Source: Stegostoma tigrinum (lineage: Eukaryota). Taken from it: DNA of 64,000 nucleotides. Positions 1 through 64,000 of the stretch are shown here, piece after piece (positions within the stretch are counted from its first letter, which is position 1; every line of letters starts with the position of its first letter). Made by a program: the position numbers and the translations under genes. Location of the stretch: the NCBI RefSeq assembly GCF_030684315.1, contig NC_081399.1, positions 9,224,113 through 9,288,112 of the forward strand. Reading direction: 5' to 3'. The notes below the pieces were generated by a model that made no database searches, was not told the DNA's origin, and saw only the letters and a program-made list of their open reading frames with translations.

Positions 1-2963
1 CCCCCTGTTAATGAAAGCCAAAACACCATATGCTTTCTTAACAACCCCGTCCACTTGGGTGGCCATTTTAAGGGATCTATGTATCTGCACACCAAGATCG
101 CTCTGTTCCTCCACACTGCCAAGAATCCTATCCTTAATCCTGTACTCAGCTTTCAAATTCGACCTTCCAAAATGCATCACCTCGCATTTATCCAGGTTGA
201 ACTCCATCTGCCACCTCTCAGCCCATCTCTGCATCCTGTCAATGTCCCGCTGCAGCCTACAACAGCCCTCTACACTGTCAACGACACCTCCAACCTTTGT
301 GTCGTCTGCAAACTTGCTGACCCATCCTTCAATCCCCTCATCCAAGTCATTAATAAAAATTACATACAGTCGAGGCCCAAGGACAGAGCCCTGTGGAACC
401 CCACTCACCACTGACTTCCAGGCAGAATATTTTCCTTCTACTACCACTCGCTGTCTTCTGTTGGCCAGCCAATTCTGTATCCAAGCAGCTAAGTTCCCCT
501 GTATCCCATTCCTCCTGACCTTCTGAATGAGCCTACCATGGGGAACCTTATCAAATGCCTTACTGAAGTCCATGTACACCACATCCACAGCTCAACCCTC
601 ATCAACTTTTCTAGTCACATCCTCAAAGAACTCGATAAGGTTTGTAAGGCATGACCTACCTCTCACAAAGCCGTGTTGACTGCATTTGATCAAGCCATGC
701 TCTTCCAGATGGTCATAAATCCTATCCCTCACAATCCTTTCTAACACCTTGCAGACGACAGACGTGAGACTTACTGGTCTGTAATTGCCGGGGATTTCCC
801 TATTTCCTTTCTTGAAGAGAGGAGTTACATTTGCCTCTCTCCAGTCCTCAGGTACGAGTCCAGTAGAGAGCCAGGATGCAAAGATCTTCGCGAGTGGTGA
901 AGCAATTGCAATTCTCGCTTCCCAAAGCAACCGAGGACAAATCTGGTCCGGGCCTGGCGACTTGTCAATCTTAATGTTTGACAAAATTTTCAGCACATCA
1001 GCTTCCTCTATCTCTATCCATTCCAGCATGCACACCTGCTCTTCAAAGGTTTCATTCACTACAAAGTTCGTTTCTTTCGTAAAGACAGAAGCAAAAAACT
1101 CATTTAGGGCTTCCACTACCTCCTCAGACTCCACACACAAGTTCCCTATGCTATCCCTGATCGGCCCTACTCTTTCCTTGACCATTCTCTTATTCCTCAC
1201 ATAAGTGTAAAATACCTTTGTGTTTTCCCGGATTCCTTCTGCCGAGCCTTTCTCGTGCCCCCTCCTGGCTCTCCTCAGACCATTTTTGAGCTTCTCCCTC
1301 GCCTGCGTGTAATCCTCTAGAGCTGAACTTGACCCTAGCTTCCTCCACCTTATGTAAGCTACCTTCTTCCTTTTCACTAGAAGCTCCACCGCTCTCATCA
1401 TCCAAGGTTCCTTTATCTTACCCGATCTTGCCTGTCTCAGAGGGACATATTTACTCATCACTCGCAACAACTGTTCCTTAAACAGTCTCCACATGTCTAT
1501 AGTGCCTTTACCATGGAACAATTGCTCCCAGTCCATGCTTCCTAACTCATGTCTAATCGCATCATAGTTTCCTCTTCCCCAATTAAATATCCTCCCATTC
1601 TGCCTAATCCTCTCCTTCTCCATAGCTATGTAGAATGTGAGGCAGTTAAGGTCACTATCACCAAAATGCTCTCCCACCACAAGATCGGATACCTGCCCCG
1701 GCTCGTTTCCGAGCACCAAGTCTAGAATGGCCTCTCCCCTCGTCGGCCTGTCAACGTACTGCGTTAGGAAACCCTCCTGAACACACCTTACAAAAACAGC
1801 TCCATTCAAATCTTCTGCTCGAAGGAGGTTCCAATCAATATTAGGAAAGTTAAAGTCACCCATTACAACAACCCTACTGCGTGCACACTTTTCCAAAATC
1901 TGTCGACCTATGCTTTCTTCAATCTCCCTGCTGCTATTGGGGGGCCTGTAGTAAACCCCTAACGAGGTGACTACTCCCTTGCTGTTCCTAATTTCCACCC
2001 ATACTGACTCAGGCAGATCTTCCTCGACAATGGAAGCTTCTGTAGCTGTGATACCCTCTCTGATTAGTAGTGCTACACCCCCTCCTCTTTTCCCCCCTCC
2101 CTATTCTTTTTAAATGTTCTAAACCCTGGAACATCCAGCAACCATTCCTGCCCATGAGAAACCCATGTCTCTGTTATGGCCACAACATCATAGCACCAGG
2201 TACTGATCCATGCTCTAAGTTCATCACTTTTATTCCTGATACTCCTTGCATTAAAGCAAACACACTTTAACCGATCCCTTGGTTCCTTCCCAGGAAAATC
2301 CTTCCCACTAGCTGGTCTACCTCTTGCTATTGCCTCACCTACATCAACTCTCACCTCTGGTATACAGCTCAGGTTCCCACCCCCCTGCCATACTAGTTTA
2401 AACCTTCTCGAACTACTCGAGCAAACCTTCCACCCAGGACATTGGTCCCCTTCCAGTTCAGATGCAACCCGTCCTTCTTGTACAGGTCCCACCTTCCCCA
2501 GAAGGCATCCCAATTATCTACATATCTGAAGCCCTCCCTCCTACACCAGCTGCGTAGCCACGTGTTCAGCTGCGCCCGCTCCCTGTTCCTCACCTCACTA
2601 TCTCGTGGCACCGATAGTAAACCAGAGAACACTACTCTGTTCGTTCTGCACTGCAGCTTCCATCCTAACTCCCTGAAATCACTTTTTATATCCTCAAACC
2701 TATTTCTGGCTATATCATTAGTGCCAATATGTAACACCATTTCTGGCTGTTCGCCCTCCCCTTTTAGAACCTTATACACCCGATCGGAGACGTCCCGGAC
2801 CCTGGCACCAGGGAGGCAACATACCTTCCAGGAATCCCGATCCTGACCACAAAATCTCCTGTCGATTCCGCTAAATATCGAGTCCCCTACCACGAGTACT
2901 TTTCTATTCTGCCCCCTTCCCTTCTTTGCCACAGTGTCAGGCTCAGTGCCAGAGAACTGACTG
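1..2963 (-). mobile_element. CR1-clade LINE, 5-prime truncated: ORF1 esterase end, APE endonuclease, RT; continues off the window
   Basis: ORF1 GDS/HIGTND/DGLHL (2393-2932); EN motifs NARS, ITETW, GVYYRPP, MGDFN, LDLV; RT motifs KSPGPD, NYRPVSL, QHGF, SKFADDT (~300-320). Nonsense codon at 592 and a frameshift near 2080. Confidence 0.95.
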
Positions 2964-2964
2964 A

Positions 2965-4892
2965 GTGTTACTGACTGACAGTGTGAGGGAGAGGGATTAA
3001 CATCAGTTGGGATACAGTCAGTAACACAGGGCGCTGGGGGGGAGAGGGGTTACTGAGTGACAGTATGAGGGAGAGGGATTAACATCAGTAGGGATACAGT
3101 CAGTAACACAGGGCGCTGGGGGGGAGAGGGGTTACTGAGTGACAGTATGAGGGAGAGGGATTAACATCAGTTGGGATACAGTCAGTAACACAGGGCGCTG
3201 GGGGGGGAGAGGGGTTACTGAGTGACAGTGTGAGGGAGAGGGATTAACATCAGTCAGGATACAGTCAGTAACACAGGGCCCTGGGGGAGAGAGGGGTTAC
3301 TGAGTGACAGTGTGAGGGAGAGGGATTAACATCAGTCGGGATACAGTCAGTAACACAGGGCGCTGGGGGGGAGAGGGGTTACTGAGTGACAGTATGAGGG
3401 AGAGGGATTAACATCAGTAGGGATACAGTCAGTAACACAGGGCGCTGGGGGGGAGAGGGGTTACTGAGTGACAGTATGAGGGAGAGGGATTAACATCAGT
3501 TGGGATACAGTCAGTAACACAGGGCGCTGGGGGGGGAGAGGGGTTACTGAGTGACAGTGTGAGGGAGAGGGATTAACATCAGTCGGGATACAGTCAGTAA
3601 CACAGGGCCCTGGGGGAGAGAGGGGTTACTGAGTGACAGTGTGAGGGAGAGGGATTAACATCAGTCGGGATACAGTCAGTAACACAGGGCGCTGGGGGGG
3701 AGAGGGGTTACTGAATGACAGTGTGAGGGAGAGGGATTAACATCAGGAGGGATACAGTCAGTAACACAGGGCGCTGAGGGGGAGAGGGGTTACTGAGTGA
3801 CAGTGTGAGGGAGAGGGATTAACATCAGTAGGGATACAGTCAGTAACACAGGGCGCTGGGGGGGGAGAGGGGTTACTGAGTGACAGTGTGAGGGAGAGGG
3901 ATTAACATCAGTAGGGATACAGTCAGTAACACAGGGCGCTGGGGGAGAGAGGGGTTACTGAGTGACAGTGTGAGGGAGAGGGATTAACATCAGTCGGGAT
4001 ACAGTCAGTAACACAGGGCGCTGGGGGGGAGAGGGGTTACTGAATGACAGTGTGAGGGAGAGGGATTAACATCAGGAGGGATACAGTCAGTAACACAGGG
4101 CGCTGGGGGGGAGAGGGGTTACTGAATGACAGTGTGAGGGAGAGGGATTAACATCAGGAGGGATACAGTCAGTAGCACAGGGCGCTGGGGGAGAGAGGGG
4201 TTACTGAGTGACAGTGTGAGGGAGAGGGATTAACATCAGTCGGGATACAGTCAGTAACACAGGGCGCTGGGGGGGAGAGGGGTTACTGAATGACAGTGTG
4301 AGGGAGAGGGATTAACATCAGTAGGGATACAGTCAGTAACACAGGGCGCTGGGGGAGAGAGGGGTTACTGAGTGACAGTGTGAGGGAGAGGGATTAACAT
4401 CAGTCGGGATACAGTCAGTAACACAGGGCGCTGGGGGGGAGAGGGGTTACTGAATGACAGTGTGAGGGAGAGGGATTAACATCAGGAGGGATACAGTCAG
4501 TAGCACAGGGCGCTGGGGGGGAGAGGGGTTACTGAATGACAGTGTGAGGGAGAGGGATTAACATCAGGAGGGATACAGTCAGTAACACAGGGCGCTGGGG
4601 GGGAGAGGGGTTACTGAGTGACAGTGTGAGGGAGAGGGATTAACATCAGGAGGGATACAGTCAGTAACACAGGGCCCTGGCGGGGAGAGGGGTTATTGAG
4701 TGACAGTGTGAGGGAGAGGGATTAACATCAGGAGGGATACAGTCAGTAACACAGGGTGCTGAGGGGGAGAGGGGTTACTGAGTGACTGTGTGCAGGAGAG
4801 GGATTAACATCAGTAGGGATACAGTCAGTAACACAGGGCGCTGGGGGGGGGAGAGGGGTTACTGAGTGACAGTGTGAGGGAGAGGGATTAAC
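2965..4892 (+). repeat. 82-bp minisatellite, about 23 copies
   Basis: Unit gagtgacagtgtgagggagagggattaacatcagtagggatacagtcagtaacacagggcgctg(G)n agaggggttact; period 82 (3055 to 3137). Confidence 0.97.
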
Positions 4893-5030
4893 AGTACTTA
4901 ATTACTTGGACTGAAGATGCAGAATGGTTGCCAAGTGAGTGTGTGAGAGAGGACTATTTGAGTAGATGCATATAGCAGCTTATTTGCAATTTGCATTGAT
5001 CTAACTGAAATACTTTCTTTCCACCTACAG

Positions 5031-7494
5031 ACTTTTCAACGTACTTACCTTATGTTGCACCTATTGTGGTTATACTATTTCTCTGTCCTGTGTGCTATGT
5101 TCTGAAGAGACAAGTTACTTTGTGGAAAACATCTTTGCATGATGAAGGCAAGTTTTGAAACCAAGTTTCCATGGCATGAGGGCTTCTGATGTTGGTTTGA
5201 GTGAGAATTCGGCAGTATCAATTCTGGGAAAGCAGGAATGAGGAGAAGGGGTCATTGAGGTTTGGGCAGGAATGATGGCAATTTGAACCAAAGGGTTCAC
5301 TCTGCAGGGGAACTGAGATCCATTCACAGGCACACACGCAGACAGACAGGCCCTGAAAGACCCCATGCTCCAGTAGCGTCTGTCCCTCCCACCAGGCTGG
5401 AACCGAAGTAGGTACGATACCAGACAAGGGTAGCGGCCTGTACTGGCCACAGGAACTTTACACAGATTAGATAAGGAGTGGGTGGAGGTGAATAGAGTTG
5501 AAGTTCACCCAGGTTCATAATTCTCATCACTCTCCTGGCGAATCAAGTTATATTCTGAATAGAGAGGTAAGAAAGTGAAGACACCTGTAGTGGAATGGCA
5601 AACCTACAGATGGCAGTGAGTAAACTGAGTGCAAAGCAGAGTAAACTGACTCGACTGGAACTGAGTGCAGGTGGAGAGTTGGCGGGGGTGATCGGAGGAA
5701 CGACAGGCTGTGAGCAAGTGCCCCGAATGGTGCGGCTCCATCAGTAAATGCCATGTCATTCACTGGTGTCTATTTTTCCATTTCAAAGCTTCAAAAAACC
5801 AGCAAAAAATGCAGCATGTTACGGATAACCCATCAACTGTTTACTCTCAAGTGCAACCGATATCTAGAAAACATGAAGAAAAATGACCTCCTCCAGAAGG
5901 AAATGAAATGGTAATGGATAAACAGGTGGAGTGGTGGGTGCGTTGGTGAGTTGGGGAACACATTTCACCCCCAGAAGCTGAGTGTTTACTGGTTCACTGA
6001 GACCCCTCCCGTCACAAAGACATTCTGTCTATCTGTATCCCAGCCCTAGAATTACACGTATCGCATAATCCTCCGTTTTCTAGTGGGGAAATGGCTGCCT
6101 TCCTTGACTAGATAAATTTCAGTGGTAGGAACACAATCATCTTCAAGCCCCATTCCTAAATCTTTGAGACACACGCCCGCACACACGTGCACGCACACAT
6201 ATTCCCTACTCCAATGAGGACAGAACATTACTTCACTTTCACTGGGTCAGACTCCCTGCAAATAGCACTGAGGGATGTTCAATAGCATTGACATTGGAAT
6301 GAGGATGGAGGAGTGTATTTGTACTCAAAATAACAAACGATCACTTACACAGGTTTCCATATACTCAGTTTCCTGAATTTCTAATATAGACATCCATACA
6401 TACCCACAATGCATCATCTTGTTGAGATGGATATCATCTGTTCTGTTGCAATGTTTCATTCAGTGTGACTCCCAATAGCAACTGAGAATCATTTCTATTA
6501 CAAACTCGCCCAACACCATTGCCCCAGTGTAGGGTGAGTGAGTAGATTCACCAATTACACACCCTCAGATTTCACTGTACACACGCACACACGTACCATC
6601 CTCTACTGCCACTGTATCCAACTATCCCCGAGCCGGTCTGCTGGGCTTTCAACGGTATTACCAAAGCTGAATGCCCAGTATCAACACTCTAGGGATATGA
6701 TTGACCAGAGCCTGAATTGGCTAACCATAGGACTAGAAGATGGGGATACTGCAGTGAGTAACTCACCTCCTGACTCCCCACAAAAGCCTGCCCCACCATC
6801 TACAAGGCACAAGTCAGGAGTATGATGGAATACTCCCCATTTGCCCTGGATGGGGCCAGCTCCAATAACACTCAAGAGGTTAGACACCAGCCAGGACAAA
6901 GCAGCCCCCACTCGATCGGCACCACATCCACAAACATCCCACTGCGCACCCCCCCCCTCCCCCCCCCCCGGCCCCACCACCACCACTGACGTTCAGTCGC
7001 AGCAGTGTGTACCATCTACAAGACGCTCTGCAGAAATTCACCAAAGATCCTCAGGCAGCACCTTCCAAACCCCACGACCCACTTCCATCCAAAAGGACAA
7101 GGGGCAGCAGATACATGGGAAGCCCACCCCCTGCAAGCTCCTCTCCGAGCCGCTCACCATTCCGGCTTGGAAATATACCGCTGTTCCTTCACTGTTGCTG
7201 GGTCAAAATCCTGGAATTCCCTTCCTAAGGGCATTGTGGGTCTAAGTATAGCACATGGACTGCAGCAGATCAAGAAGGCAGCCAATCATCACCTTCTCAA
7301 GGGGGGCAATTACGGACGGGGCAATAAATGCTCACCCTGTAAGCCGCGCCCTTGTCCCACAAAGGAATGAAAATGAATGTCTGTGCTTTTGTCGCAAACC
7401 CGACTTTTTGTTTTTTCTGCAGAGTGTAATACACAATGACACTTGTGAGTTACCGACCACAGTGTATGATACCATCAAGCCGCCTGGAAACTAG
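5031..7494 (+). pseudogene. Inverted duplicate of SLAM-like exons 4-6 (5031-5147, 5789-5910, 7423-7494); truncated paralogue or pseudogene
   Basis: Near-identical to the minus-strand exons with splice sites kept. CTT>CCT (L>P in TM), CCT>ACT, GGT>GCT, GCA>GAA, and TGC>TGA stop at 5884-5886. No upstream Ig exons in the window. Confidence 0.8.
6760..7360 (+). mobile_element. Old non-LTR retrotransposon 3-prime fragment (mirror copy ~14265-14865, minus)
   Basis: Remnant YKAQVRSMMEYSP...SWNSLP typical of LINE ORF2 C-termini; boundaries approximate. Confidence 0.55.
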
Positions 7495-7604
7495 AGCCTA
7501 CATCACAGGATTCAATTCAGGATAATCTCAGATCCCTGCCTGTTCTGTACTGTGAGGCCAACCCAGCCTGGGTGAACAAGGACGGAGGACAAGATTAGTC
7601 CTTA

Positions 7605-8140
7605 AGAGAGTCTGTGTNNNNNNNNNNNNNNNNNNNNNNNNNNNNNNNNNNNNNNNNNNNNNNNNNNNNNNNNNNNNNNNNNNNNNNNNNNNNNNNNNNN
7701 NNNNNNNNNNNNNNNNNNNNNNNNNNNNNNNNNNNNNNNNNNNNNNNNNNNNNNNNNNGAGAGAGTGTGTGGGAGGGATAGAGAGTGCGTGTGTGTGGGA
7801 GAGAGANNNNNNNNNNNNNNNNNNNNNNNNNNNNNNNNNNNNNNNNNNNNNNNNNNNNNNNNNNNNNNNNNNNNNNNNNNNNNNNNNNNNNNNNNNNNNN
7901 NNNNNNNNNNNNNNNNNNNNNNNNNNNNNNNNNNNNNNNNNNNNNNNNNNNNNNNNNNNNNNNNNNNNNNNNNNNNNNNNNNNNNNNNNNNNNNNNNNNN
8001 NNNNNNNNNNNNNNNNNNNNNNNNNNNNNNNNNNNNNNNNNNNNNNNNNNNNNNNNNNNNNNNNNNNNNNNNNNNNNNNNNNNNNNNNNNNNNNNNNGCA
8101 CATGAATGTGAGACAGTGTGTGTGTTTCTCAATGTGTGTG
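7605..8140 (-). repeat. Compound (GA/GT) microsatellite with N gaps
   Basis: Visible islands are reverse complements of the CA/CT array at 9796-10790. Confidence 0.75.
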
Positions 8141-8724
8141 TGTTATCTCAAACCATCCTTTGGCAGATTTCTAAGGGTCTGGTTTGGCTACTTTCTGGTC
8201 ATGAAGAACAAAAGCTGTTCATTTCGCTGCCTGATGTGCACAATTATACATTACCGAGGACACCGAGCCCATTGAATCTACCAGCAAAAGTACTTCACAA
8301 GCTACTCCAGGCCCATAGCCTTGAATCTTATGACACTTTTTAAAGGTTGCCAGGTTTCCTCCCTTAACTATCCTTCAAGGTGATGAATTCCAGACCCTTA
8401 ACACTGTCTGCGGGAGAAACAATTTCCTCAAATCCTTTCACTTTGAAAAGATGCTCTCTTGTTACTGACCCTTTGACTGACTGGAACAGCTGCTTTCTAT
8501 CCACCCATTCGATCCCCCTCAGAGATCCTATGCCCCTCATTTGATAATCTTTGATCAGCAAGCAAGATGTCGGGGAAGTAGAGCGCACCAGCCGGAGCTT
8601 GTCTACTCTACCCGTTCTTTTCCTTCCTTATTTCTCCCCGATTCCGTCTAGCCGGACACTCAACCTTGAACACCCAGTCAGGACAGGCTGCCAGCAACCA
8701 GGGGCACGGAGTGAGGTCGACAGT

Positions 8725-9247
8725 GACGAGAGACTGCCTGGAACAAGGAGACCAGTGACCAGGGAGTGCCTGGAATGGGGATATCAGTGACCAGAGAGTG
8801 CCTGGAACGGGGATGGCACTGACCAGAGAGTGCCCGGAACGGGGATGGCACTGACCAGAGAGTGCCTGGAACAAGGAGACCAGTGACCAGAGAGTGCCTG
8901 GAACGGGGATGGCACTGACCAGACAGTGCCTGGAACAGGGATGGCACTGACCAGAGAGTGCCCGGAACGGGGATGGCACTGACCAGAGAGTGCCCGGAAC
9001 GGGGATATCAGTGACCAGAGAGTGCCCGGAAGGGGGTTGGCACTGACCAGAGAGTGTCCGGAACGGGGATGGCACTAACAAGAGAGTGCCTGGAACGGGG
9101 AAGGCACTGACCAGAGAGTGCCCGGAACGGGGATGGCACTGACCAGAGAGTGCCCGGAACAGGGATGGCACTGACCAGAAAGTGCCCGGAACGGGGATAT
9201 CAGTGTCTAGGGAGTGTCCGGAACGGGGATGGCACTGACCAGAGAGT
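8725..9247 (+). repeat. 32-bp minisatellite, about 16 copies
   Basis: Unit gaccagagagtgcccggaacggggatggcact; period 32 (8821 to 8853). Confidence 0.95.
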
Positions 9248-9307
9248 GGATTGGAGCAGGACAATGGCTCAGTGCACACCATCATGGCAGTAGTCTCAGT
9301 ATTACCC

Positions 9308-9795
9308 CTAACCCAGCACCTCCTCAGGCCCCTCACCCAGCACCTCCTCAGGCCCCTCACCCAGCACCTCCTCAGGCCCCTCACCCAGCACCTCCTCAGG
9401 CCCCCTCATGCAGCACCTCCTCAGGCCTCCTCACCCAGCACCTCCTCAGGCCCCCTCACCCAGCACCTCCTCAGGCCCCCTCACCCAGCACTACCTCAGG
9501 CCTCCTCACCCAGCACCTCCTCAGGCCCCCTCACCCAGCACCTCCTCAGGCCCCCTCACGCAGCACCTCCTCAGGCCCCCTCACCCGGCACCTCCTCAGG
9601 CCCCCTCACCCAGCACCTCCTCAGGCCCCTCACCCACCACCTCCTCAGGCCCCCTCACCCACCACCTCCTCAGGCCCCCTCACCCGGCACCTCCTCAGGC
9701 CCCCTCACCCGGCACCTCCTCAGGCCCCCTCACCCAGCACCTCCTCAGGCCCCTCACCCACCACCTCCTCAGGCCCCCTCACCCAGCACCTCCTC
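9308..9795 (+). repeat. 24/25-bp minisatellite, about 19 copies
   Basis: Unit cctcacccagcacctcctcaggccc, same as 41166-42624. Confidence 0.95.
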
Positions 9796-10790
9796 ACACA
9801 AACACANNNNNNNNNNNNNNNNNNNNNNNNNNNNNNNNNNNNNNNNNNNNNNNNNNNNNNNNNNNNNNNNNNNNNNNNNNNNNNNNNNNNNNNNNNNNNN
9901 NNNNNNNNNNNNNNNNNNNNNNNNNNNNNNNNNNNNNNCACTCTCTCACACACCCTCTCTCTCTCACACACACACTCTCTCTCACACACACACTCTCTCT
10001 CACACACACACTCTCATACACACTCTCTCNNNNNNNNNNNNNNNNNNNNNNNNNNNNNNNNNNNNNNNNNNNNNNNNNNNNNNNNNNNNNNNNNNNNNNN
10101 NNNNNNNNNNNNNNNNNNNNNNNNNNNNNNNNNNNNNNNNNNNNNNNNNNNNNNNNNNNNNNNNNNNNNNNNNNNNNNNNNNNNNNNNNNNNNNNNNNNN
10201 NNNNNNNNNNNNNNNNNNNNNNNNNNNNNNNNNNNNNNNNNNNNNNNNNNNNNNNNNNNNNNNNNNNNNNNNNNNNNNNNNNNNNNNNNNNNNNNNNNNN
10301 NTCCCACACATTCTCTCACACACAGACTCTCCCACACACACACTCTCATACACACTCTCTCTCACACACACACTCTCTCCCACACACACACTCTCTCCCT
10401 CCCACAGATACTCTCTCTCCCAAACACACGCACTCTCTATCCCTCCCACACACTCTCTCACATAGACTCTCCTACACACACACTCACTCTCTCCCACACA
10501 CACACAAACACAGACTCTCTCTCACACACACACACGCTCTCCCTCCCACAGATACTCTCTCCCACACACACGCACTCTCTATCCCTCCCAAACACTCTCT
10601 CACACAGACTCTCCCACACACACACTCACTCTCTCCCACACACACACAGACTCTCTCTCACACACACACACTCTCTCCCCCAACACACTCTCTCCCTCCC
10701 ACAGATACTCTCTCTCCCACACACACACTCTCTCCCTCACACATACACACTCTCTCAAACACACCCACAAACACACACTCACATACATTG
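9796..10790 (+). repeat. Compound (CA/CT) microsatellite with N gaps
   Basis: Recurrent ctctctcccacacacac and cccacagatactctct motifs. Confidence 0.9.
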
Positions 10791-10863
10791 GCAGATCGCA
10801 TGTTCATGTTTAGTATGGTGATGAAGGTTGATGGAAAAAGGAGTGTGATACTGTGCTATGGAA

Positions 10864-11297
10864 GAAACAGCTTTCCACAGCACAATGTGTTATAGGTATC
10901 ACTAACAGCTCTCACATGGCATTGCTCCCAGTTTGTGCGATGATCAGTGTCAATGGGAGAAACAGCTTTCCACAGCACAATGTGTTATAGGTATCACTAA
11001 CAGCTCTCACATGGCATTGCTCCCAGTTTGTGCGATGATCAGTGTCAATGGGAGAAACAGCTTTCCACAGCACAATGTGTTATAGGTATCACTAACAGCT
11101 CTCACATGGCATTGCTCCCAGTTTGTGCGATGATCAGTGTCAATGGGAGAATGTGCTTTATGCCATGGAATGTGTTATAGGTATCACTAACAGCTCTCAC
11201 ATGGCATTGCTCCCAGTTTGTGCACTGATCAGTGTCAATGGGAGAATGTGCTTTATGCCATGGAATGTGTTATAGGTATCACTAACAGCTCTCACAT
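10864..11297 (+). repeat. 95-bp tandem repeat, about 4.5 copies, two unit variants
   Basis: aaacagctttccacagcacaatgtgttataggtatc... recurs at 10865, 10960 and 11055. Confidence 0.95.
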
Positions 11298-11542
11298 TGC
11301 AGACATCAATAATATACAATACGTCACTAAATGAAAACATTTAGCTGTTTGAATTATGTTCACCTTTAAATAGCAGATTGTTGACAGTGATATGTATGGA
11401 TTTAAACATATTTATTAAAAACTTCCATAAAAGTAACAAAATACTGATGATTTTACAAAAAACACATTCATAGCTGGTCATGCTACGCAAGGCAGAAGCA
11501 TCAAACATAGCGGACTCAGCAGTAATCAGAAGTGATTATCTG

Positions 11543-13240
11543 AGATAATGGGGACTGCAGATGCTGGAGAATCCAAGATAACAAAGTGTGGAGCTGGATG
11601 AACACAGCAGGCCAAGCAGCATCTCAGGAGCACAAAAGCTGACGTTTCGGGCCTAGACCCTTCATCAGAGAGGGGGATGGGGTGAGGGTTCTGGAATAAA
11701 TAGGGAGAGAGGGGGAGGCGGACCGAAGATGGAGAGAAAAGAAGATAGGTGGAGAGAGTACAGGTGGGGAGGTAGGGATTTCAAGGCCGAAGAGATTACA
11801 AGAGAGTTGCAATGGGAGAGAGATTCCCTGAGGTTGGTCCGGAGGGAGGAGGGTAAATTTTTCAGGTTGGGCATCCCTGGAAGAGGCTTCACAGTGAGGT
11901 TAAAATAGTATCAGAGATAATGGGAACACAGCTACCTAGAATACGCCTCCTCCCACCCACCCTCCTGCAAAAATTCCATCCCCTATTGCCAATTCCTCCG
12001 CCTCTGCCGCGTCTGCTCCCACGATAAGACATTCCACTGCCGCACATCCCAGATGTCCAAGTTCTTCAAGGACCGCAACTTTCCCCCCACAGTGATCGAG
12101 AACGCCCTCGACCGCGTCTCCCGTATTTCCCGCAACACGTCCCTCACACCCCGCCCCCGCCACAACCGCCCAAAGAGGATCCCCCTCGTTCTCACACACC
12201 TCCCCACCAACCTCCGGATACAACGCATCATCCTCCGACACTTCCGCCATCTACAATCCGACCCCACCACCCAAGACATTTTTCCATCCCCACCCCTGTC
12301 TGCTTTCCGGAGAGACCACTCTCTCCGTGACTCCCTTGTTCGCTCCACACTGCCCTCCAACCCAACCACACCCGGCACCTTCCTCTGCAACCGCAGGAAA
12401 TGCTACACTTGCCCCCACACCTCCCCCCTCACCCCTATCCCAGGCCCCAAGATGACATCCCACATTAAGCAGAGGTTCACCTGCACATCTGCCAATGTGG
12501 TATACTGCATCCACTGTACCCGGTGTGGCTTCCTCTACATTGGGGAAACCAAGCGGAGGCTTGGAGACCGCTTTGCAGAACACCTCCGCTCAGTTCGCAA
12601 CAAACTACTGCACCTCCCAGTCGCAAACCATTTCCACTCCCCCTCCCATTCTTTACATGACATGTCCATCATGGGCCTCCTGCAGTGCCACAATGATGCC
12701 ACCCGAAGGTTGCAGGAACAGCAACTCATATTCCGCCTGGGAACCCTGCAGCCTAATGGTATCAATGTGGACTTCACCAGTTTCAAAATTTCCCCTTCCC
12801 CAACTGCATCCCTAAACCAGCCCAGTTCGTCCCCTCCCCCCACTGCACCACACAACCAGCCCAGCTCTTCCCCCCCACCCACTGCATCCCAAAACCAGTC
12901 CAACCTGTCTCTGCCTCCCTAACCGGTTCTTCCTCTCACCCATCCCTTCCTCCCACCCCAAGCCGCACCTCCATCTACCTACTAACCTCATCCCACCTCC
13001 TTGACCTGTCCGTCTTCCCTGGACTGACCTATCCCCTCCCTACCTCCCCACCTATACTCTCCTCTCCACCTATCTTCTTTTCTCTCCATCTTTGGTCCGC
13101 CTCCCCCTCTCTCCCTATTTATTCCAGTTCCCTCTCCCCATCCCCCTCTCTGATGAAGGGTCTAGGCCCGAAACGTCAGCTTTTGTGCTCCTGAAATGCT
13201 GCTTGGCCTGCTGTGTTCATCCAGCCTCACATTTTGTTGT
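11543..13240 (+). mobile_element. Penelope-like element, 5-prime truncated (GIY-YIG end), with inverted terminal-repeat segment and 15-bp TSD
   Basis: ORF 12053-12922 with CNRRKCYTC linker and VVYCIHC..C..LYIGETKR..R..EH GIY-YIG motif; inverted segment 11543-11928; TSD agaagtgattatctg at 11528-11542 and 13241-13255. Confidence 0.93.
13150..13177 (+). ncRNA. Minimal hammerhead ribozyme core in the PLE terminal repeat
   Basis: CTGATGA-aGGGTctagGCCC-GAAAC-GTC. Related cores at 11641-11668(-), ~39054-39081(-), ~56128-56155(+), ~61597-61624(-) and 62987-63014(+). Minimal hammerheads are an established PLE feature; stem I is short in this copy. Confidence 0.7.
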
Positions 13241-13568
13241 AGAAGTGATTATCTGCCCTGATTGGTCATGAAAAGCAGCTAATATTCTGTGTGGCACCGT
13301 GTTAAAGCAAATTCACATTGTTCAATCCTTGCAGGATTGTGTGCTTTGTCATATCAGATTGGTAAACACACACAGCTATCAGGATCATGTTGGGGAATTT
13401 TCCATTCGTCATCAAATATCATGAATGATATCTTCAGACAAACGTTCCTTCCTTGAATAACTGTAAGCATCAGACTGAGAGGTCTTTTGTTCCCTGAGAG
13501 ATATAAAAACTATGGCGGGGTGGGGGGTGGACTTTGGATTTTTGGTAAAAGATCAGCCTTGATCCTTA

Positions 13569-13724
13569 AAAACCAAAAGAACTGCAGATGTTGTAAATGA
13601 GGAACAAAAGCAAAGTTGCTGGAAAAGCTCAGCAGGTCTAGCAGCATCTGTGGAGGAGAAAACAGAGTTAATGGTTCTGAGGAAGGGTCACCGGACTGAG
13701 CTTTTCTAACAACTTCTGTTTTTG
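13569..13724. mobile_element. Short PLE-derived fold-back insertion (second family) with 16-bp TSD
   Basis: TSD tcagccttgatcctta at 13553-13568 and 13725-13740; internal inverted segments; partial core ctgaggaagggtcacc. Confidence 0.75.
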
Positions 13725-14129
13725 TCAGCCTTGATCCTTATTGTTTGCAGTTCAAGCTCCAGGAGCTGAATAGCCTCCTCCTGCATCTTTGCTCTTTGTT
13801 AAAAAGTAAACATAAAAATAAAGCAATAAATTTCTCTCTTTCTGTCTGATCTAAGTATATTCAATGGCCGCATTTTCAGATTCATTTGACTTTTCTGAAC
13901 ACAGATCGAGATAATTACAGAAAGAAAGTTAGAAAGAAATGTAAAATACTCAGCAAAGGTACCTAATAAAACCTAGCACAGGCGAGATGGGTAGAGTGAT
14001 ATTTTCTTTGTTCTGTGGCTAAGGACTAATCTTGTCCTCCGTCCTTGTTCACCCAGGCTGGGTTGGCCTCACAGTACAGAACAGGCAGGGATCTGAGATT
14101 ATCCTGAATTGAATCCTGTGATGTAGGCT

Positions 14130-14201
14130 CTAGTTTCCAGGCGGCTTGATGGTATCATACACTGTGGTCGGTAACTCACAAGTGTCATTGTGTATTACAC
14201 T
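14130..14201 (-). CDS. SLAM-like gene exon 6, terminal, ITSM TVYDTI
   Basis: Strong acceptor ttttgtttttttctgcag, phase 0; SVIHNDTCELPTTVYDTIKPPGN then TAG. Confidence 0.87.
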   Translation of the reverse strand, partial: SVIHNDTCELPTTVYDTIKPPGN

Positions 14202-17200
14202 CTGCAGAAAAAAACAAAAAGTCGGGTTTGCGACAAAAGCACAGACATTCATTTTCATTCCTTTGTGGGACAAGGGCGCGGCTTACAGGGTGAGCATTTA
14301 TTGCCCCGTCCGTAATTGCCCCCCTTGAGAAGGTGATGATTGGCTGCCTTCTTGATCTGCTGCAGTCCATGTGCTATACTTAGACCCACAATGCCCTTAG
14401 GAAGGGAATTCCAGGATTTTGACCCAGCAACAGTGAAGGAACAGCGGTATATTTCCAAGCCGGAATGGTGAGCGGCTCGGAGAGGAGCTTGCAGGGGGTG
14501 GGGGTCCCATGTATCTGCTGCCCCTTGTCCTTCCGGATGGAAGTGGGTCGTGGGGTTTGGAAGGTGCTGCCTGAAGATCTTTGGTGAATTTCTGCAGAGC
14601 GTCTTGTAGATGGTACACACTGCTGCGACTGAACGTCAGTGGTGGTGGTGGGGCCGGGGGGGGGGGAGGGGGGGGGGTGCGCAGTGGGATGTTTGTGGAT
14701 GTGGTGCCCATCAAGTGGGGGCTGCTTTGTCCTGGCTGGTGTCTAACCTCTTGAGTGTTGTTGGAGCTGGCCCCATCCAGGGCAAATGGGGAGTATTCCA
14801 TCATACTCCTGACTTGAGCCTTGTAGATGGTGGGGCAGGCTTTTGTGGGGAGTCAGGAGGTGAGTTACTCACTGCAGTATCCCCATCTTCTAGTCCTATG
14901 GTTAGCCAATTCAGGCTCTGGTCAATCATATCCCTAGAGTGTTGATACTGGGCATTCAGCTTTGGTAATACCGTTGACAGACCAGTAGACCGGCTCGGGG
15001 ATAGTTGGATACAGTGGCAGTAGAGGATGGTACGTGTGTGTGTGTGTACAGTGAAATCTGAGGGTGTGTAATTGGTGAATCTACTCACTCACCCTACACT
15101 GGGGCAATGGTGTTGGGCGAGTTTGTAATAGAAATGATTCTCAGTTGCTATTGGGAGTCACACTGAATGAAACATTGCAACAGAACAGATGATATCCATC
15201 TCAACAAGATGATGCATTGTGGGTATGTATGGATGTCTATATTAGAAATTCAGGAAACTGAGTATATGGAAACCTGTGTAAGTGATCGTTTGTTATTTTG
15301 AGTACAAATACACTCCTCCATCCTCATTCCAATGTCAATGCTATTGAACATCCCTCAGTGCTATTTGCAGGGAGTCTGACCCAGTGAAAGTGAAGTAATG
15401 TTCTGTCCTCATTGGAGTAGGGAATATGTGTGCGTGCACGTGTGTGCGGGCGTGTGTCTCAAAGATTTAGGAATGGGGCTTGAAGATGATTGTATTCCTA
15501 CCACTGAAATTTATCTAGTCAAGGAAGGCAGCCATTTCCCCACTAGAAAACGGAGGATTATGCGATACGTGTAATTCTAGGGCTGGGATACAGATAGACA
15601 GAATGTCTTTGTGACGGGAGGGGTCTCAGTGAACCAGTAAACACTCAGCTTCTGGGGGTGAAATGTGTTCCCCAACTCACCAACGCACCCACCACTCCAC
15701 CTGTTTATCCATTACCATTTCATTTCCTTCTGGAGGAGGGCATTTTGCTTCATGTTTTCTAGATATCGGTTGCACTTGAGAGTAAACAGTTGATGGGTTA
15801 TCCGTAACATGCTGCATTTTTTGCTGGTTTTTTGAACCTTTGAAATGGAAAAATAGACACCAGTGAATGACATGGCATTTACTGATGGAGCCGCACCATT
15901 CGGGGCACTTGCTCACAGCCTGTCGCTCCTCCGATCACCCCCGCCAACTCTCCACCTGCACTCAGTTCCAGTCGAGTCAGTTTGCTCTGCTTTGCACTCA
16001 ATTTACTCACTGCCATCTGTAGGTTTGCCATTCCACTACAGGTGTCTTCACTTTCTTACCTCTCTATTCAGAATATAACTTGATTCGCCAGGAGAGTGAT
16101 GAGAATTATGAACCTGGGTGAACTTCAACTCTATTCACCTCCACCCACTCCTTATCTAATCTGTGTAAAGTTCCTGTGGCCAGTACAGGCCGCTACCCTT
16201 GTCTGGTATCGTACCTACTTCGGTTCCAGCCTGGTGGGAGGGACAGACGCTACTGGAGCATGGGGTCTTTCAGGGCCTGTCTGTCTGCGTGTGTGCCTGT
16301 GAATGGATCTCAGTTCCCCTGCAGAGTGAACCCTTTGGTTCAAATTGCCATCATTCCTGCCCAAACCTCAATGACCCCTTCTCCTCATTCCTGCTTTCCC
16401 AGAATTGATACTGCCGAATTCTCACTCAACCCAACATCAGAAGCCCTCATGCCATGGAAACTTGGTTTCAAAACTTGCCTTCGTCATGCAAAGATGTTTT
16501 CCACAAAGGAACTTGTCTCTTCAGAACATAGCATACAAGACAGAGAAATAGTATAACCACAATAGGTGCAACATAAGGTAAGTACGTTGAAAAGTCTGTA
16601 GGTGGAAAGAAAGTATTTCAGTTAGATCAATGCAAATTGCAAATAGGCTGCTATATGCATCTACTCAAATAGTCCTCTCTCACACGCTCACTCGGGAACC
16701 ATTGTGCAACTTCAGCCCAAGTAATTAAGTGCTGTTACTCCCTCTCCCTCACACTGTCACTCAGTAACTCCTCTCCCACCCAGTGCCCTGTGTTACTGAC
16801 TGTATCCCTACTGATGTTAATCCCTCTCCCTCACACTGTCACTCAGTAACTCCTCTCCCACCCAGTGCCCTGTGTTACTGACTGTATCCCTACTGATGTT
16901 AATCCCTCTCCCTCACACTGTCACTCAGTAACCCCTCTCCCCCCCAGCGCCCTGTTTTACTGACTGTATCCCTACTGATGTTAATCCCTCTTCCTCACAC
17001 TGTCACTCAGTAACCCCTCTCCCCCCCAGTGTCCTGTGTTACTGACTGTATCCCTGCTGATGTTAATCCCTCTCCCTCACACTGTCACTCAGTAACCCCT
17101 CTCCCCCCAAGTGCCCTGTGTTACTGACTGTATCCCTCCTGATGTTAATCCCTCTCCCTCACACTATCACTCAGTAACCCCTCTCCCCCCCAGCGCCCTG

Positions 17201-20200
17201 TGTTACTGACTGTATCCCTCCTGATGTTACTCTAGCTCTCTTACACTGTCCCTCATTGTCTCCTCTCTCTCTCCACCTCCTTTCCCCCCGTGTTAATGAT
17301 TGTATCTTGACGGATTTTCTTAATTTTATGGCCATTCTTTCTTGTGTTTGTGCTGTGTCCAAACTTAGACAATCAGACCTTAAGAAATAGGGACAGGAAT
17401 AGGCCATCTGCCTCCTCATGCCTGCTCCACTATTCAAAATGATCGCACCTAATCTGAACTGCATCACACCACATTCCTGCCTTTTCTACTTAACCCTTGA
17501 CACTCCCTTATTTTATCTGTTGCCTGTTTTTGCACAATTATACCCTTTTGCTATCAGTTGGAGACTGACTGTAATGTTGCGGTTTGAGCATTAATGTAAT
17601 AGCCTTGGATAATTTACTTACTCACTGCAATGGATCTATTTTGCACATTCAGAAATATTCCCTGCAACGCCTGCCACCTCACGTGTCTTGACCTATCATA
17701 TAACCGAATTTGTCAACTCCCTTCAGCCAGCTCTGCCTTCAGAATTTCATCCTGCTCTTAGGCCATCCTGTTCTATTGTTTAATATCATCATTTGCCAAC
17801 ACTGATACCCCTCCACCTTCTTCTAGTTTTGAGCCATTCCTAAATTTCCTGTAGGTTCCATTCCATGTTATCCTGCAGCCCAGGCTCTGTAAGGCTCATT
17901 CATTTCTGTTTATCCTCCCAGTTCATCTGTTTCTTTCAAATGGTACATGCGTTCAGGCACAGAGCCGTTACTCTGATCCTTTTAGTCTCTTTCTAAATTC
18001 TATCTGATCTGTTGGTTGACTCTTAGCTTCGCACATCATGTGTTGGCACTTCCCTAAGTGGGTGTTGAGACCCAAGCCAGGTCAGAAGATGTTTTGGGGC
18101 CGTCACCCCCTAGTAAGCAATGACAGTCATGCAGTTCTAGGCTATAATAAGTGTGCTGCATACTAACAGAGAAGCCCACACCAACACAGCATACCTCCAC
18201 CTCTCTCTCACGGTCTCTCTCCCTTCCTTTATAGTTCCCAATTGGGATTAGGGGTTTGCAACAATTTTCAATCCTCAAAATGAGGTTATGAATGGAAAAA
18301 CCTTGGGAAGCACCCCTCTATCCCTTCCTGCCACAGTCTTTTTAATATGTCCTAGAATAAATTTCCGGGCTGTTGTTATTTCAACGTACTATCTCACTCA
18401 CATGCTATCAAAGATGAAAGCAGGCTGGAGGAATAGCTCCTCACTTTACCATCAGGCCCGTTACAGCATTCACGATTCAAGATTGACTTCAACAACTTTA
18501 GCGGTGAACACTGCATTCCATTTTCTTTACTACCGTCCCCGCCATTCCCAAACATACCCCACCGTTTGGTAAAAACCATTCAAATCAAGCCCTCCCAGGA
18601 CAGGTAAAGCACAGGGAATCTCTCTCCTCTTTTAAACTGAACGTAAAGTAACAGCGAAGGGCTCTCAACATTGACCCCATCACATACTCCCACAGCAGGT
18701 ACAACACAAGGTTAGATCCAGAGTAAAGGATGCAGAGATGGGCTGAGAGGTGGCAGATGGAGTTCAACCTGGATAAATGCGAGGTGATGCATTTTGGAAG
18801 GTCGAATTTGAAAGCTGAGTACAGGATTAAGGATAGGATTCTTGGCAGCGTGGAGGAACAGAGGGATCTTGGTGTGCAGATACATAGATCCCTTAAAATG
18901 GCCACCCAAGTGGACAGGGTTGTTAAGAAAGCATATGGTGTTTTGGCTTTCATTAACAGGGGGATTGAGTTTAAGAGTCGTGAGATCTTGTTGCAGCTCT
19001 ATAAAACTTTGGTTGGACCGCACTTGGAATACTGCGTCCAGTTCTGGGCGCCCTATTACAGGAAAGATGTGGATGCTTTGGAGAGGGTTCAGAGGAGGTT
19101 TACCAGGATGCTGCCTGGACTGGAGGGCTTATCTTATGAAGAGAGGTTGACTGAGCTCGGTCTCTTTTCATTGGAGAAAAGGAGGAGGAGAGGGAACCTA
19201 ATTGAGGTATACAAGATAATGAGAGGCATAGATAGAGTTGATAGCCAGAGACTATTTCCCAGGGCAGAAATGGCTAGCACGAGGGGTCATAGTTTTAAGC
19301 TGGTTGGTGGAAAGTATAGAGGGGATGTCAGAGGTAGGTTCTTTATGCAGAGAGTTGTGAGAGCATGGAATGCGTTGCCAGCAGCAGTTGTGGAAGCAAG
19401 GTCATTGGGGTCATTTAAGAGACTGCTGGACATGTATATGGTCACAGAAATTTGAGGGTGCATACATGAGGATCAATGGTCGGCACAACATTGTGGGCTG
19501 AAGGGCCTGTTCTATGCTGTACTGTTCTATGTTCTATGTTCTATGTTCTAAAGCTACTTCCAGTTTCTTTAAAGGAACGTAAAGCTCGCTCTACACTGCC
19601 CCCATGAAACACTTCTAAGACATGGACAGCACAGGGAACGATACAGAGTAAGACTGGCTTCACTCTCTTAAAATGGAAGTGAACAGAAAGTGAAGCTCTC
19701 TCCACGCCATCCCCAGCAAACACTCGCAGTGTAGATGCAGCAGAGGGGCAGATAGAGAGTGAAGTTCTGTCTACCATTTTAAGCTGAAACTAAACTGATA
19801 GTGAAGCTCTCTCGACTCTGTCGACACTCGATGAGCAGAGGGATCTCGGTGTCTATGTGCATAGATCCCTGAAAGTTGCCAACCAGGTTGATAGTGTTGT
19901 TAAGAAGGCATAAAGTGTGTTAGGTTTTATTGGGAGAGGGATTGAGTTTCAGAGCCATGAGGTCATGTTGCAGCTGTACAAAACTCTGGTGCGGCCACAC
20001 TTAGAGTATTGCATTCTGTTCTGGTCGCTGCATTATAAGAAGACTGTGGAAGCTTTGGAAAGGGTGCAGAGGAGATTTACTAGGATGTTGCCTGGTATGG
20101 AGGGAAGGTCTTGCTAGGAAAGGCTGAGGGCCTTGAGGCTGTTTTCGTTAGAGAGAGGAAGGTTAAGAGGTGACTTAATACAGACATACAAGATGATCAG

Positions 20201-23200
20201 AGGATTAGATAGGGTGGACAGTGAGAGCCTTTTTCCTCGGATGGTGATGGCTAGCATGAGGGGATATAGCTTTAAATTGAGGCGTGAAAGATATAGGACA
20301 GATGTCAGAGGCAGATTCTTTACTCAGAGAGTAGTAAGGGCGTGGAATGCCCTGCCTGCAATGGTCGTAGATTCGACAACTTTAAGGGCATTTAAATAGT
20401 TATTGGATAAACATATGGATGATAATGGAATAGTGTAGGTTAAATGGGCTTCAGATTGGTTTCACAGGTCGGTGCAACATCGAGGGCCGAAAGGCCTGTA
20501 CTGCGCTGTAATGTTCTATGCTCCATGTTCTAAAGCACTCTCTACACTATCCCCCATCACATACTCCCAGGACAGGGACAGCAAGGGGTGAGATACAGAA
20601 TAAAGCTCCCTCTACACTGCCCCAATCAAACGCTTCCAGAGCAGGAACAGCACAAGGTTAGATACTGAGTGAAGCCCTCTCTACTCTTTTGACCTGGAAG
20701 TAAGGGCGGCACGGTGGCTCTGTGGTTAGCACTGCAGCCTCACAGCACCAGGGACTCAGGTTCGATTCCAGCCTTGGGTAACTATGTGTTTGGAGTTTGC
20801 ACATTCTCCCCGTGTCTGCGTGGGTTTCCTCCGGGTGCTCCGGTTTCCTCCCACAGTCCAAAGATGTGCAGGCTTGGTGGATCGGCCATGCTAAATTGCC
20901 CCTAGTGTTCAGGGGTGTGTGGGTTATAGGGGGATGGGTCTGGGTGGGATGCTGCAAGGGGCGGTGTGGACGTGTGGGCCGAAGGGCCTGTTTCCACACT
21001 GTAGGGAATCTAATCTAACACTCCCTCTACAATGTCCCCACGAAACACTTCCAGCACAGGGACAGCATGGGATTACATACAGAGTAAAGCTCTCTCTAAA
21101 CTGTCCCCCATCAAACACTCCCAGCACAGGGACAGGATGGAGTAGGATCCAGAGTAAAGCTCCCTCTACAATGTCCCCTATCAAACACTCCCAGGACAGG
21201 GACAGCATGGGGGTCAGATACAGAGTAAAGCTTTCTCTACACTGTCCCAATTAAGCACTGCTAGGACAGGGACAGATGGGTTAGATACAGAGTGAAGTTC
21301 TCTCTACACTGGCCCCACCAAACACTCCCAGGACAGGGACAGCACGAGATTAGATACAGAGTAAAGCTCCCTCTACACTGTCCCCCAGTAAACACTCCCA
21401 GGACAAACTTTATGCCTGAATGCAGTAGCTTATTGCTTTCTGTGACACTCACCAGATACACTTCCCTTACAGACATCTTCCAGTTTGATCTCTGCCGTTT
21501 TGTGACTGACTGGATTGCTGGCCTCACATCTCACAGCTCTCTCATTGGGCTCTGCTGTGAACAAAAGCTGCGAACTCTCTCCATTTTCAAAGACACGATG
21601 GGTGAGCTCATTTCCCAATGCTTCCTGTCCCCTCCACCAGGTGAAGCTGACGTTACTGCCTGCGTTCACGGAGCACCTCAGCGTCACATTGCAGTTAGTA
21701 ATGTTTCCAATGTTGACGTTTGTTCCTGTCACAGCCTCTGAAATTCAGTTTGAAAAGCAAAAACACATGAGGAAGCGCTGGAAACCCTTGTTTGTAACTC
21801 AATTCCTAGCACAATCCCCCCACTTCAAACCGACACCAGGGAAAGTTTCATTCCTGCTCATTTCTCCATCAGACACATTGACACTTTCCCTCATACATTA
21901 AGTTCAAACAAGTCACAGGTATCATTATGAGTAAATTCATGCGCAAAGGGTGAATGAGTGTGTGACTATGAGCAACATAAATTATGGCACCATCACTTAC
22001 ACAGAAATTACTTCACCAGCAATATCAGCATTTCTTAAAGAAATTAATTTCAATCTGGTGAGTTGTGAGGTGCTGATAGCTGAGCAAAGGGATCTCAAGG
22101 TGCACATGAACCACCTCTAACTGTACTCATGCAGGTTGGTAAAGCTGTGATTTTGTCAATAGTTACACCTCACTGAGCTATCACGTTGGAAATCACACCC
22201 CACTACTCCCAGGGGCATCATAAGATGTTAAAGATTTTTCTTTAAAAGTTCACAAAATCCTCAATTTACCTGTTTTTTGGACCACATGGATAAAAATCAC
22301 AGATCATGTTGCTTTACTTAACAGCAGTTATAATATTTATCCGTAAATTGTTTCCAACTGCAGATATACAATTAGGAACTACATACATATAACTCTACAA
22401 CATCAAATTCTAACTCCCACTCACAAACTCCACCTCTGTTTACATGCACAGACAGGCGTAAAATAGCGTGGTGGTTATGGGTGATGGTGAAGACTGGAAC
22501 AGCAGTTCAATAGTTTTTGTTTTGTCGGATTTGATTCTTTCGTTGTCTCCTTGGTTCTCCTCCTCTAGTAACTTTCTCTTCTGTGCAGGAGGTACAATGT
22601 GACAGGTTCACACTTATGAAGTCTCTGACATATTGGTTAAAAAATTCACAAGTTACAGCACGTGGCTTTCTTCAGGCTTGGGGTAGTTATTACGACAGAG
22701 AAAAGGGACAGCTCCTTCTCTCTTAGAGATCACAAGACCTCTCCTGAAACTTTCATATCCATAACCTGTTCAGCTAAATGAGAGCCAATCACATCGTTGT
22801 CAGCAGGCAGGAGGCCTTTACCATCAATAACTTGCCACCATGCCACTTCACCGACCATGCGTCTACTTGTTGCTGATTAAATCTTCATCTGCACACAGCC
22901 TGTGTGTAACTAGACATCCCCCCACTGCCTGAACAAGCAGCAGTATAAGCAGTACTAACAATGGGTGCCAGGTAAATTGTCTTAGAAAATGCAGCAATCC
23001 TTCAACAATCCTTGGTTCTTAAAATAGGCCTTTTTTCACATTTCAGTCTAGAATTAAAAACAGAGAAATAAAAAGATATGGTCTCTTCACAACTTACCGC
23101 ACTGAAATCCACTTCAGCAATAGAGAGAATTGAAAAGCAGAGAAGCTCTGGTCTCCATTTCCCTCAGTAAGGCCACACTTGGAGCATGAAGCAACTCTAA

Positions 23201-31842: not shown

Positions 31843-31849
31843 CGAGAGA

Positions 31850-31888
31850 GAGGAGGAAGTAACCAGACTGCAAAATGAGGAAGCGGTT
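31850..31888. promoter_or_regulatory. Tandem ETS/PU.1-like sites just upstream of the SLAM-like ATG
   Basis: GAGGAAGT (31853-31860) and AAAATGAGGAAGC (31872-31884) lie within ~45 bp of the start codon. Motif match only. Confidence 0.4.
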
Positions 31889-33004
31889 AGACGGAAAGAC
31901 GTATGCATCTGAAAGAAAATGTATCCTACTTAGACAAGTATACCATCCCCATACCGCAGGCTGTGTAGAGCCTCTCGGTGCATTCCCCGTATCCGGCCAA
32001 TTATGTGATTCCTTCTGTGCCAGACTATCTCGGTTTCTCGGTACCCCTTTAATGGAGTGACACCTCATTTCGCTTACTGTTCTGAGTGACCCCCTCATTC
32101 GCTCTGTACTGTTTGAGAGACCCACTCCTCCTCCCTCATACTCTTCTCTGTGAGTGACGCCTATTGTAGACATATCTCTCATAATTTTACTTTACACACT
32201 TTGCTCCAACCACACATGACGCATTCTGTTCCTTTATTCAGTTTCCTACCACTGCTTATAGCTCTGCCTGTATTTATGAAGTCAAACTCACATATAAGAA
32301 GAGTTTTCCATTTACTCTATGTGACTTTCCATGCTCCCTTTATTGATAACAAAAAAAACTTTCAACAACCCATTCCATTTCCAAAGGCACGGAATTGGTT
32401 GAGATGCCAATCAGGTTTTCACATACTCACTTGTAGCTTTACTAGCCTACACCCTGAAATAATGAGCAATGACCCATTTTGCTATCCTCTCTCTGTCCCT
32501 ATAACCACTTTGTGTTCATCTCTCTATCTATTGCTTTCGCTATTTCTCTCTCGCTCCTCCTTAAGATCACTTGCATTCTGCATTTTTTTCTTTAGGGTCA
32601 ACTACTTCCTGCCTTCATTTACTGCTAAAAGTTCACGTAGCAACCTCCATTTTGGTCAGATTTAACCACGACATTTTTCAGGTTGTCAGTGTAGAATCAG
32701 CTATTCAGACTTTTGTTTTTTCATTGTGAGCTAGCATCAGGGAGAAACGACATCAACAATTGAGGTTAATTCCTGTGGAGCCTGAGATTATCATGAAGGA
32801 GTCTCCTTCTCAACCTCTCCCCTTGCCTGACGTGGGGTGACCCTCTGGTTAGACCACCACCAGTCTTCTCTCTCCATTAAGATAGCAGGGCTAAGGTGTC
32901 TTTACCTTTACGTAGCAAAAGAAAAACCATCTCCAAGACATTTTGAAGCCCTTAGATTCTTTAAGCTTTGGCTAGGCCAGAAACAACAATAGTAAAAAAA
33001 ACAC

Positions 33005-33300
33005 TGTATCTAACACTGTGCTGTTCCTGCCCTTGGAATGTTTGATGAGGACAGCTCAGTTTCAAATAGTGGGGGGAGCTTTACTCTGTATCTAACCCCA
33101 TGCTGTCCCTGTCCTGTGAGTGTTTGATGGGGACAGTGTAGAAGCAGCTTTACTCTGTATCTAACCCCATGCTGTCCCTGTCCTGCGAGTGTTTGATGGG
33201 GACAGTGTAGAGGCAGCTTTACTCTGTATCTAACCCCAAGCTGTCCCTGTCTTGGGAGTGTTCGATGAGGACAGTGTCAAGGGAGCTTTACTCTATATTA
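33005..33300 (-). repeat. ~69-bp satellite, reverse orientation (also ~35740-35880)
   Basis: gctttactctgtatctaaccccatgctgtccctgtcctg...gtgtttgatggggacagtgtaga repeated. Confidence 0.88.
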
Positions 33301-33549
33301 AACTGGAAAAGCAGCATTTGAAGGCAGGAAGGTCAAACATCAGAATTGACACAAACATTTATCAACAATGAGCACCTGTTTAACTGGTTGAAACCTAATC
33401 TGTTCGCTAGTTTTAAATGGCGTATGCATTAGTGGTTGAGTTAACATAAGACATAAAATGCAAGATCAATAATTGAATAACGAAGTAAATAATTGATTAA
33501 AAATTCTGAAAAATGTCAGTACAGCTGGTGTGTCAAAGCTGCAACATGC

Positions 33550-55256: not shown

Positions 55257-55287
55257 CGCAGCAGCGAGCTATGTAAGTAGAGTCCAT

Positions 55288-63913: not shown

Positions 63914-64000
63914 GAAGATAAGGTGTTGTTCTTCAAATTTGTTTTCCGAGTCACTGTGACACTGGAGGACGCTGAGGATGAACATGTTGGAGGGGGAGTG

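Follow-up and report, generated by a model that had tools for sequence, protein, structure and literature searches.

A palindromic duplication of a SLAM/CD2-family receptor gene in the zebra shark, with a one-motif left copy that is probably under relaxed selection

A 64,000-nucleotide stretch of the zebra shark (Stegostoma tigrinum) genome (contig NC_081399.1, C59:9,224,113-9,288,112; hereafter the window, with negative positions lying to its left) was found to overlap a large palindrome, in each arm of which lies one complete receptor gene of the SLAM/CD2 family. The pair is probably a product of birth-and-death turnover, that is, of a real inverted duplication of about 50 kb, 6.4 kb apart, whose newer left copy is under relaxed selection and likely becoming a pseudogene. 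On the sequence evidence, the left copy is most likely a young duplicate that is perhaps still transcribed. In the proposed course of events, a block of about 50 kb with the whole receptor gene and two relics of immunoglobulin V-set (IgV) exons would have been copied in inverted orientation from right to left, after which the left copy would have gained a stop codon leaving one immunoreceptor tyrosine-based switch motif (ITSM) and drifted toward a pseudogene. If expressed, it would escape junction-based nonsense-mediated decay (NMD) and yield a 295-residue receptor with a single SAP/EAT-2 docking motif, a proline in the transmembrane (TM) helix and two glycosylation sequons fewer.

Comparison of the window with itself revealed an inverted pair at 4893-7604 and 14020-16733; of the 2,691 aligned sites that are unmasked, 33 are substituted, and there are two 1-bp indels. 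An earlier note, made from the window alone, had correctly described these 2.7-kb arms as carrying the TM and cytoplasmic exons and as ending 110 nt past the ancestral stop codon. When 464 kb around the window was compared with itself, the pair was seen to be only the inner tips of a larger palindrome, in which a collinear chain of minus-strand blocks joins window positions -47,929..7,604 to 14,020..64,456. The arms measure about 55.5 kb (left) and 50.4 kb (right), are separated by a spacer of 6.4 kb and are free of gaps. The outer end of the left arm lies at C59:9,176,183, while the right arm (14020..64000, minus strand) reaches its true end at 64,456, just beyond the window. In both DNA searches, full-length matches to the arm sequence were obtained at two places in the genome. 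Non-coding divergence between the arms was 347 of 41,908 sites (0.83%), and six copy-specific insertions or deletions, from 125 bp to 3.5 kb in size, separate them. The divergence is uneven, ranging from 0.1 to 2.7% per 2 kb, and is overdispersed (chi2 230, 41 degrees of freedom), which suggests patchy gene conversion between the arms. Besides the whole receptor gene, the duplicated block contains two dead SLAM-like IgV relics, recognized by sequence comparison in both arms; in the right arm these are a frameshifted one at 36042..36305 (plus) and one with several stops at 58459..58719 (minus).

It had been proposed in the earlier note that only the signalling half of the receptor was duplicated. 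A genome search with the right-copy exons, covering the region left of the window where plus-strand immunoglobulin exons had been suggested, identified the twin of the IgV exon about 13 kb and the twin of the C2-set (IgC2) exon about 7 kb left of the window, both on the plus strand and with 95% and 96% amino acid identity to the right copy, respectively. The left leader (C59:9,208,042-9,208,108, plus), IgV (C59:9,210,751-9,211,071, plus) and IgC2 exons (C59:9,216,934-9,217,218, plus) together span 7 to 16 kb left of the window, and a 125-bp short interspersed element (SINE) is inserted just upstream of the left ATG. Since all three exons lie within the collinear left arm, the whole gene was duplicated, leader included. 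The left arm had appeared to stop at 4893 because a long interspersed element (LINE) sits in an expanded minisatellite of the IgC2-TM intron, past which homology resumes. This left-copy-specific CR1-type fragment of 3.5 kb, with endonuclease and RVT_1 matches, lies antisense (minus strand) at 1..2966 and on to window position -572. It is embedded in a minisatellite with an 82-bp unit, 23 units of which lie at 2967..4893 and 35 more to the left of the LINE; the total is about 59 units in the left copy against about 7 in the right. A duplication of the TM and cytoplasmic exons alone takes its support from the end of the left arm as seen inside the window, at the minisatellite near 4893; but the leader, IgV and IgC2 exons of the same collinear arm are found farther upstream (plus strand), and such a partial duplication is to all intents ruled out.

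Exon comparison placed the remaining left-copy exons, all on the plus strand, at 5031..5147 (TM), 5789..5910 (cytoplasmic exon 1, with the ITSM TVYSQV) and 7423..7494 (last exon, with the ITSM TVYDTI). Here the details given in the earlier note held good: neither copy has lost a splice dinucleotide, and in each the TM exon is followed by a GC donor; a leucine of the TM segment is replaced by proline (L244P, at 5088); and a TGC codon has become TGA at 5884-5886, between the two motifs and 24 nt before the last junction. The second motif is therefore now untranslated, in an exon identical to that of the right copy. Because of the position of the stop, the left transcript would escape junction-based NMD under the 50-nt rule. 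The left TM segment is still hydrophobic despite L244P (mean 2.29 versus 2.58), and two N-glycosylation sequons present in the right copy are absent. The left 3' untranslated region (UTR) is cut short, with the first canonical poly(A) hexamer 3.8 kb beyond the junction. The nearest canonical hexamers were located at 11414 onward for the left copy and at 13123 and 11416 for the right, so that the convergent 3' UTRs could overlap in antisense (window 11414-13965).

The right copy, by the same exon comparison, occupies the minus strand, with leader at 31776..31842, IgV exon at 27706..28026, IgC2 exon at 21453..21737, TM exon with GC donor at 16479..16595, cytoplasmic exon 1 with TVYSQV in an open frame at 15716..15837, and last exon with TVYDTI and the stop codon at 14130..14201. 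Its genomic exons form an open frame of 327 amino acids with two ITSMs.

The anatomy of both junctions indicates that the left copy is derived and the right one parental. The left arm, at its outer end, holds only the last 30 or so bases of a CR1 3' end, and the right arm has the continuation of that CR1; at the inner end the left 3' UTR meets a microsatellite at 7604, and the right copy runs on into unique sequence. We infer that the block on the right served as the template and that the left one was inserted in inverted orientation 1.2 kb upstream of the leader exon of a neighbouring minus-strand region. That leader exon (L025:796-890, window -49,204 to -49,110, minus), 1.2 kb outside the left arm, is 89% identical to the leader of the present gene. 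It matches the leader of whale shark isoform X1 and points to an IgV exon of a distant subfamily 10 kb off; it may have been orphaned by an earlier rearrangement.

The spacer (7605..14019, 6.4 kb) is single-copy and consists of microsatellites, minisatellites, SINEs and a retroelement. The N gaps that had been noted in it are masks, since no N occurs in the genome sequence that covers the spacer; within the 464 kb, assembly gaps are confined to two runs of 200 N, which lie 76 and 127 kb to the left of the window. This bears on the possibility that the contig joins two haplotypes, or a heterozygous inversion in both its orientations. The arms are about 99% alike and a single assembly is the basis of the analysis, both of which would be in keeping with such an artefact; its stated basis is lost, however, because the spacer has no gaps, and the palindrome and its surroundings are likewise gap-free. 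Comparison of the spacer with the left outer flank gave no match, although a collapsed heterozygous inversion would need one, and that form of artefact was rejected. Fold-back chimeras would be near 100% identical, a level that the arms do not reach. Their divergence of 0.83%, with six large indels, also exceeds the genome-wide heterozygosity of 0.18-0.55% given for two other sharks, the zebra shark not being among them (bioRxiv 10.1101/2025.02.19.638963). An assembly artefact is accordingly considered quite unlikely.

The assignment of the gene was based on its layout and on homology searches. Hallmarks of the SLAM/CD2 family are an N-terminal IgV domain without the canonical disulfide and a membrane-proximal IgC2 domain with four conserved cysteines. 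The zebra shark gene encodes a leader, a cysteine-free IgV, a four-cysteine IgC2, a TM segment and TxYxxV/I motifs; neither copy has a cysteine in its IgV exon, and the four of the IgC2 exon are present in both copies and across the alignment. Among the 17 PDB sequences matched by the IgV exon, the best were SLAMF6 (E 9e-8), SLAMF5/CD84 and CD48, with CD2 also matched. A V-set match (E 1.6e-12) was obtained, PF11465 scored over its cut-off and Pfam SLAM (PF06214) just under it (23.6 versus 25). The ITSM, TxYxxV/I (PMC7409338), occurs twice in the right genomic frame and once in the left. Of 227 candidates in the protein search, 28 proteins were retained, every one of them from a shark or a ray; the match at 100% is named "SLAM family member 5-like" (Stegostoma tigrinum). 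The two zebra shark copies are sisters, with support of 100/100, in a tree built from 15 shark and ray proteins, where they adjoin a whale shark pair, and the whale shark protein carries both ITSMs. The gene thus shares with SLAMF6, CD84, CD48 and CD2 the domain layout and the clustering with other SLAM-like genes; unlike them it belongs to a shark-specific subfamily. Receptor pairs of the KIR, LILR and CEACAM type also have near-identical ectodomains and different tails, but the zebra shark tails differ only by one lost ITSM. The TM segments of both copies lack a charged residue and the tails hold ITSMs only, with no activation (ITAM) or inhibitory (ITIM) tyrosine-based motif, which rules out a classical activating/inhibitory pair.

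Relaxed selection on the left copy is suggested by the coding differences. The copies differ by 14 nonsynonymous and 4 synonymous changes and the one stop, giving a ratio of nonsynonymous to synonymous divergence (dN/dS) of 1.01. Polarised against the whale shark, the left-derived changes mostly fall in conserved columns, the ancestral residue being kept by 15 of 15 other shark and ray proteins at S94N, 14 at V206A, 13 at N144K, 12 at T143A, 10 at L244P and 3 at P30L. The right-derived changes are in variable columns (residue kept by 6, 5, 5, 4 and 3 of the 15). Residue 294, whose column is misaligned, was excluded, and the post hoc contrast between left and right gave p = 0.04 by rank and 0.013 by permutation. 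The lesion itself is confined to a nonsense change in the tail, alongside a dN/dS of 1.0 on 18 changes and the altered conserved columns.

Several observations weigh against decay of the left copy. Its frame is intact over 295 codons, with all splice sites and the four IgC2 cysteines kept. It is modelled as a coding gene in RefSeq, with five accessions, four of which begin in the left-specific SINE upstream of the ATG. By number the polarised changes are symmetric (6 left-derived and the stop, 6 right-derived, 2 unpolarised), dN/dS is poorly bounded because there are only 18 coding changes, and the conservation test is not one of independent sampling because the 15 outgroup rows are mutually related. 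Coding divergence (19/986 sites) is higher than non-coding (Fisher p = 0.001-0.008), an excess that is marginal under block permutation (p = 0.04-0.10). Positive selection on the pair was rejected, as the excess mostly fades under that permutation and dN/dS is 1.0.

The same observations could be accommodated if the left copy had been retained as a one-ITSM modulator of its two-ITSM parent, a tail variant made by duplication and not by splicing. The stop lies exactly between the ITSMs and in the zone of NMD escape, the ectodomain is open, coding models exist in RefSeq and coding divergence is mildly raised. There is also precedent for such receptors: mouse Ly108-H1 is reported as an active splice isoform with one ITSM (PMC3135348), and 2B4-S and human CS1-S are described as isoforms with a reduced number of ITSMs, CS1-S having none (PMC7409338). 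All three resemble the zebra shark pair in having the same type of ectodomain with fewer ITSMs; they differ in arising by alternative splicing of one gene and in having been functionally tested, whereas the zebra shark variant arose by a nonsense change in a duplicate and is known from sequence. A SAP-like gene (sh2d1a-like) is reported to be expressed in T cells of the bamboo shark (PMC11372145). On the other side stand the lack of a purifying signal (dN/dS 1.0), the left-derived changes in conserved columns with two sequons lost and a proline in the TM segment, the cut 3' UTR with its distant hexamer, and the death of both adjoining IgV duplicates of the same block. Retention as a functional tail-variant pair is therefore a possibility of distinctly lower standing than turnover with a decaying left copy. 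The three readings offered in the earlier note fared unequally: the convergent paralogue with its Ig exons left of the window is anatomically correct, the young decaying copy agrees best with the selection data, and the assembly artefact has lost its gaps.

Both copies are already modelled in RefSeq, in a cluster whose six proteins come from two genes of this contig. Splicing of the left exons yields a translation identical to RefSeq P0030 (295 amino acids, one ITSM), and the accessions that begin within the left-specific SINE are hints of transcription of the left copy. The one-ITSM sister copy of the earlier note thus exists as a gene model; a functional receptor pair is hypothetical. All four right-copy RefSeq proteins (P0008, P0029, P0032 and P0033; five accessions) read through the GC donor and end in DEGKF, with no ITSM, whereas the left models splice at that same donor. 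The read-through models may represent real intron retention or the assignment of reads between near-identical copies. Taken at face value, they would mean that neither copy makes the ancestral two-ITSM receptor, and that a left one-ITSM signalling copy faces a right tail-less decoy without ITSM in a gene-converting palindrome; this seems improbable. A white shark isoform was considered as read-through of the same GC donor and discarded, because its "GKNG..." also occurs inside two-ITSM isoforms and is a small extra exon.

The pair provides a base-resolved example of the turnover of a SLAM-type cluster in a cartilaginous fish, through an inverted segmental duplication, the insertion of mobile elements and the truncation of a tail. 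Its significance is modest; this is probably ordinary gene birth-and-death and would answer no long-standing question. Should the one-ITSM copy be expressed and selected, tuning of ITSM number would be fixed at the gene level in sharks, where mammals use splicing. Expansions of the CD2/SLAM family with variable ITSM number have reportedly been found in cyprinids and Xenopus. In the published literature on SLAM receptors of sharks, cartilaginous fish and teleosts that was searched, most subscription journals lying outside it, no description of this pair was found. One slamf gene of the white shark appears in a paper on the shark MHC (PMC10751288).

Several close SLAM-like paralogues with two, one or no ITSM were identified in other sharks and rays. 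The basking shark has five protein clusters on one 433-kb contig, including two-ITSM, ITSM-less and TM-less models, and the sawfish has six SLAM-like protein clusters on one contig. These expansions are like the zebra shark pair in comprising near-identical paralogues with differing tails, and unlike it in being known from protein models alone. The whale shark has two leader/IgV variants: its "isoforms" P0015 and P0034 differ in the leader and in IgV residues, which suggests an independent duplication of the 5' exons.

Within the zebra shark genome, a second SLAM-like subfamily was found as three near-identical copies at C59:9,164,515 (minus), 9,426,212 (plus) and 8,975,984 (plus). Further IgC2-like exons lie to the right, some 113 and 244 kb from the start of the window, and more distant SLAM/CD2-like Ig exons were located on another contig (C44, at 16.07, 16.87 and 29.02 Mb). 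In human, KCNJ9 is linked to the SLAM genes at 1q23; an exon of an inward-rectifier channel, typed as GIRK-type (Kir3) only, was found 72 kb left of the window (L028:8116-8940, plus) and fits that linkage. A separate direct tandem triplication (L031-L039, window -190,000 to -103,000) includes a 28-kb block whose copies are about 99% identical; a gap of 200 N marks one of the boundaries, and the triplication may be real or a false duplication.

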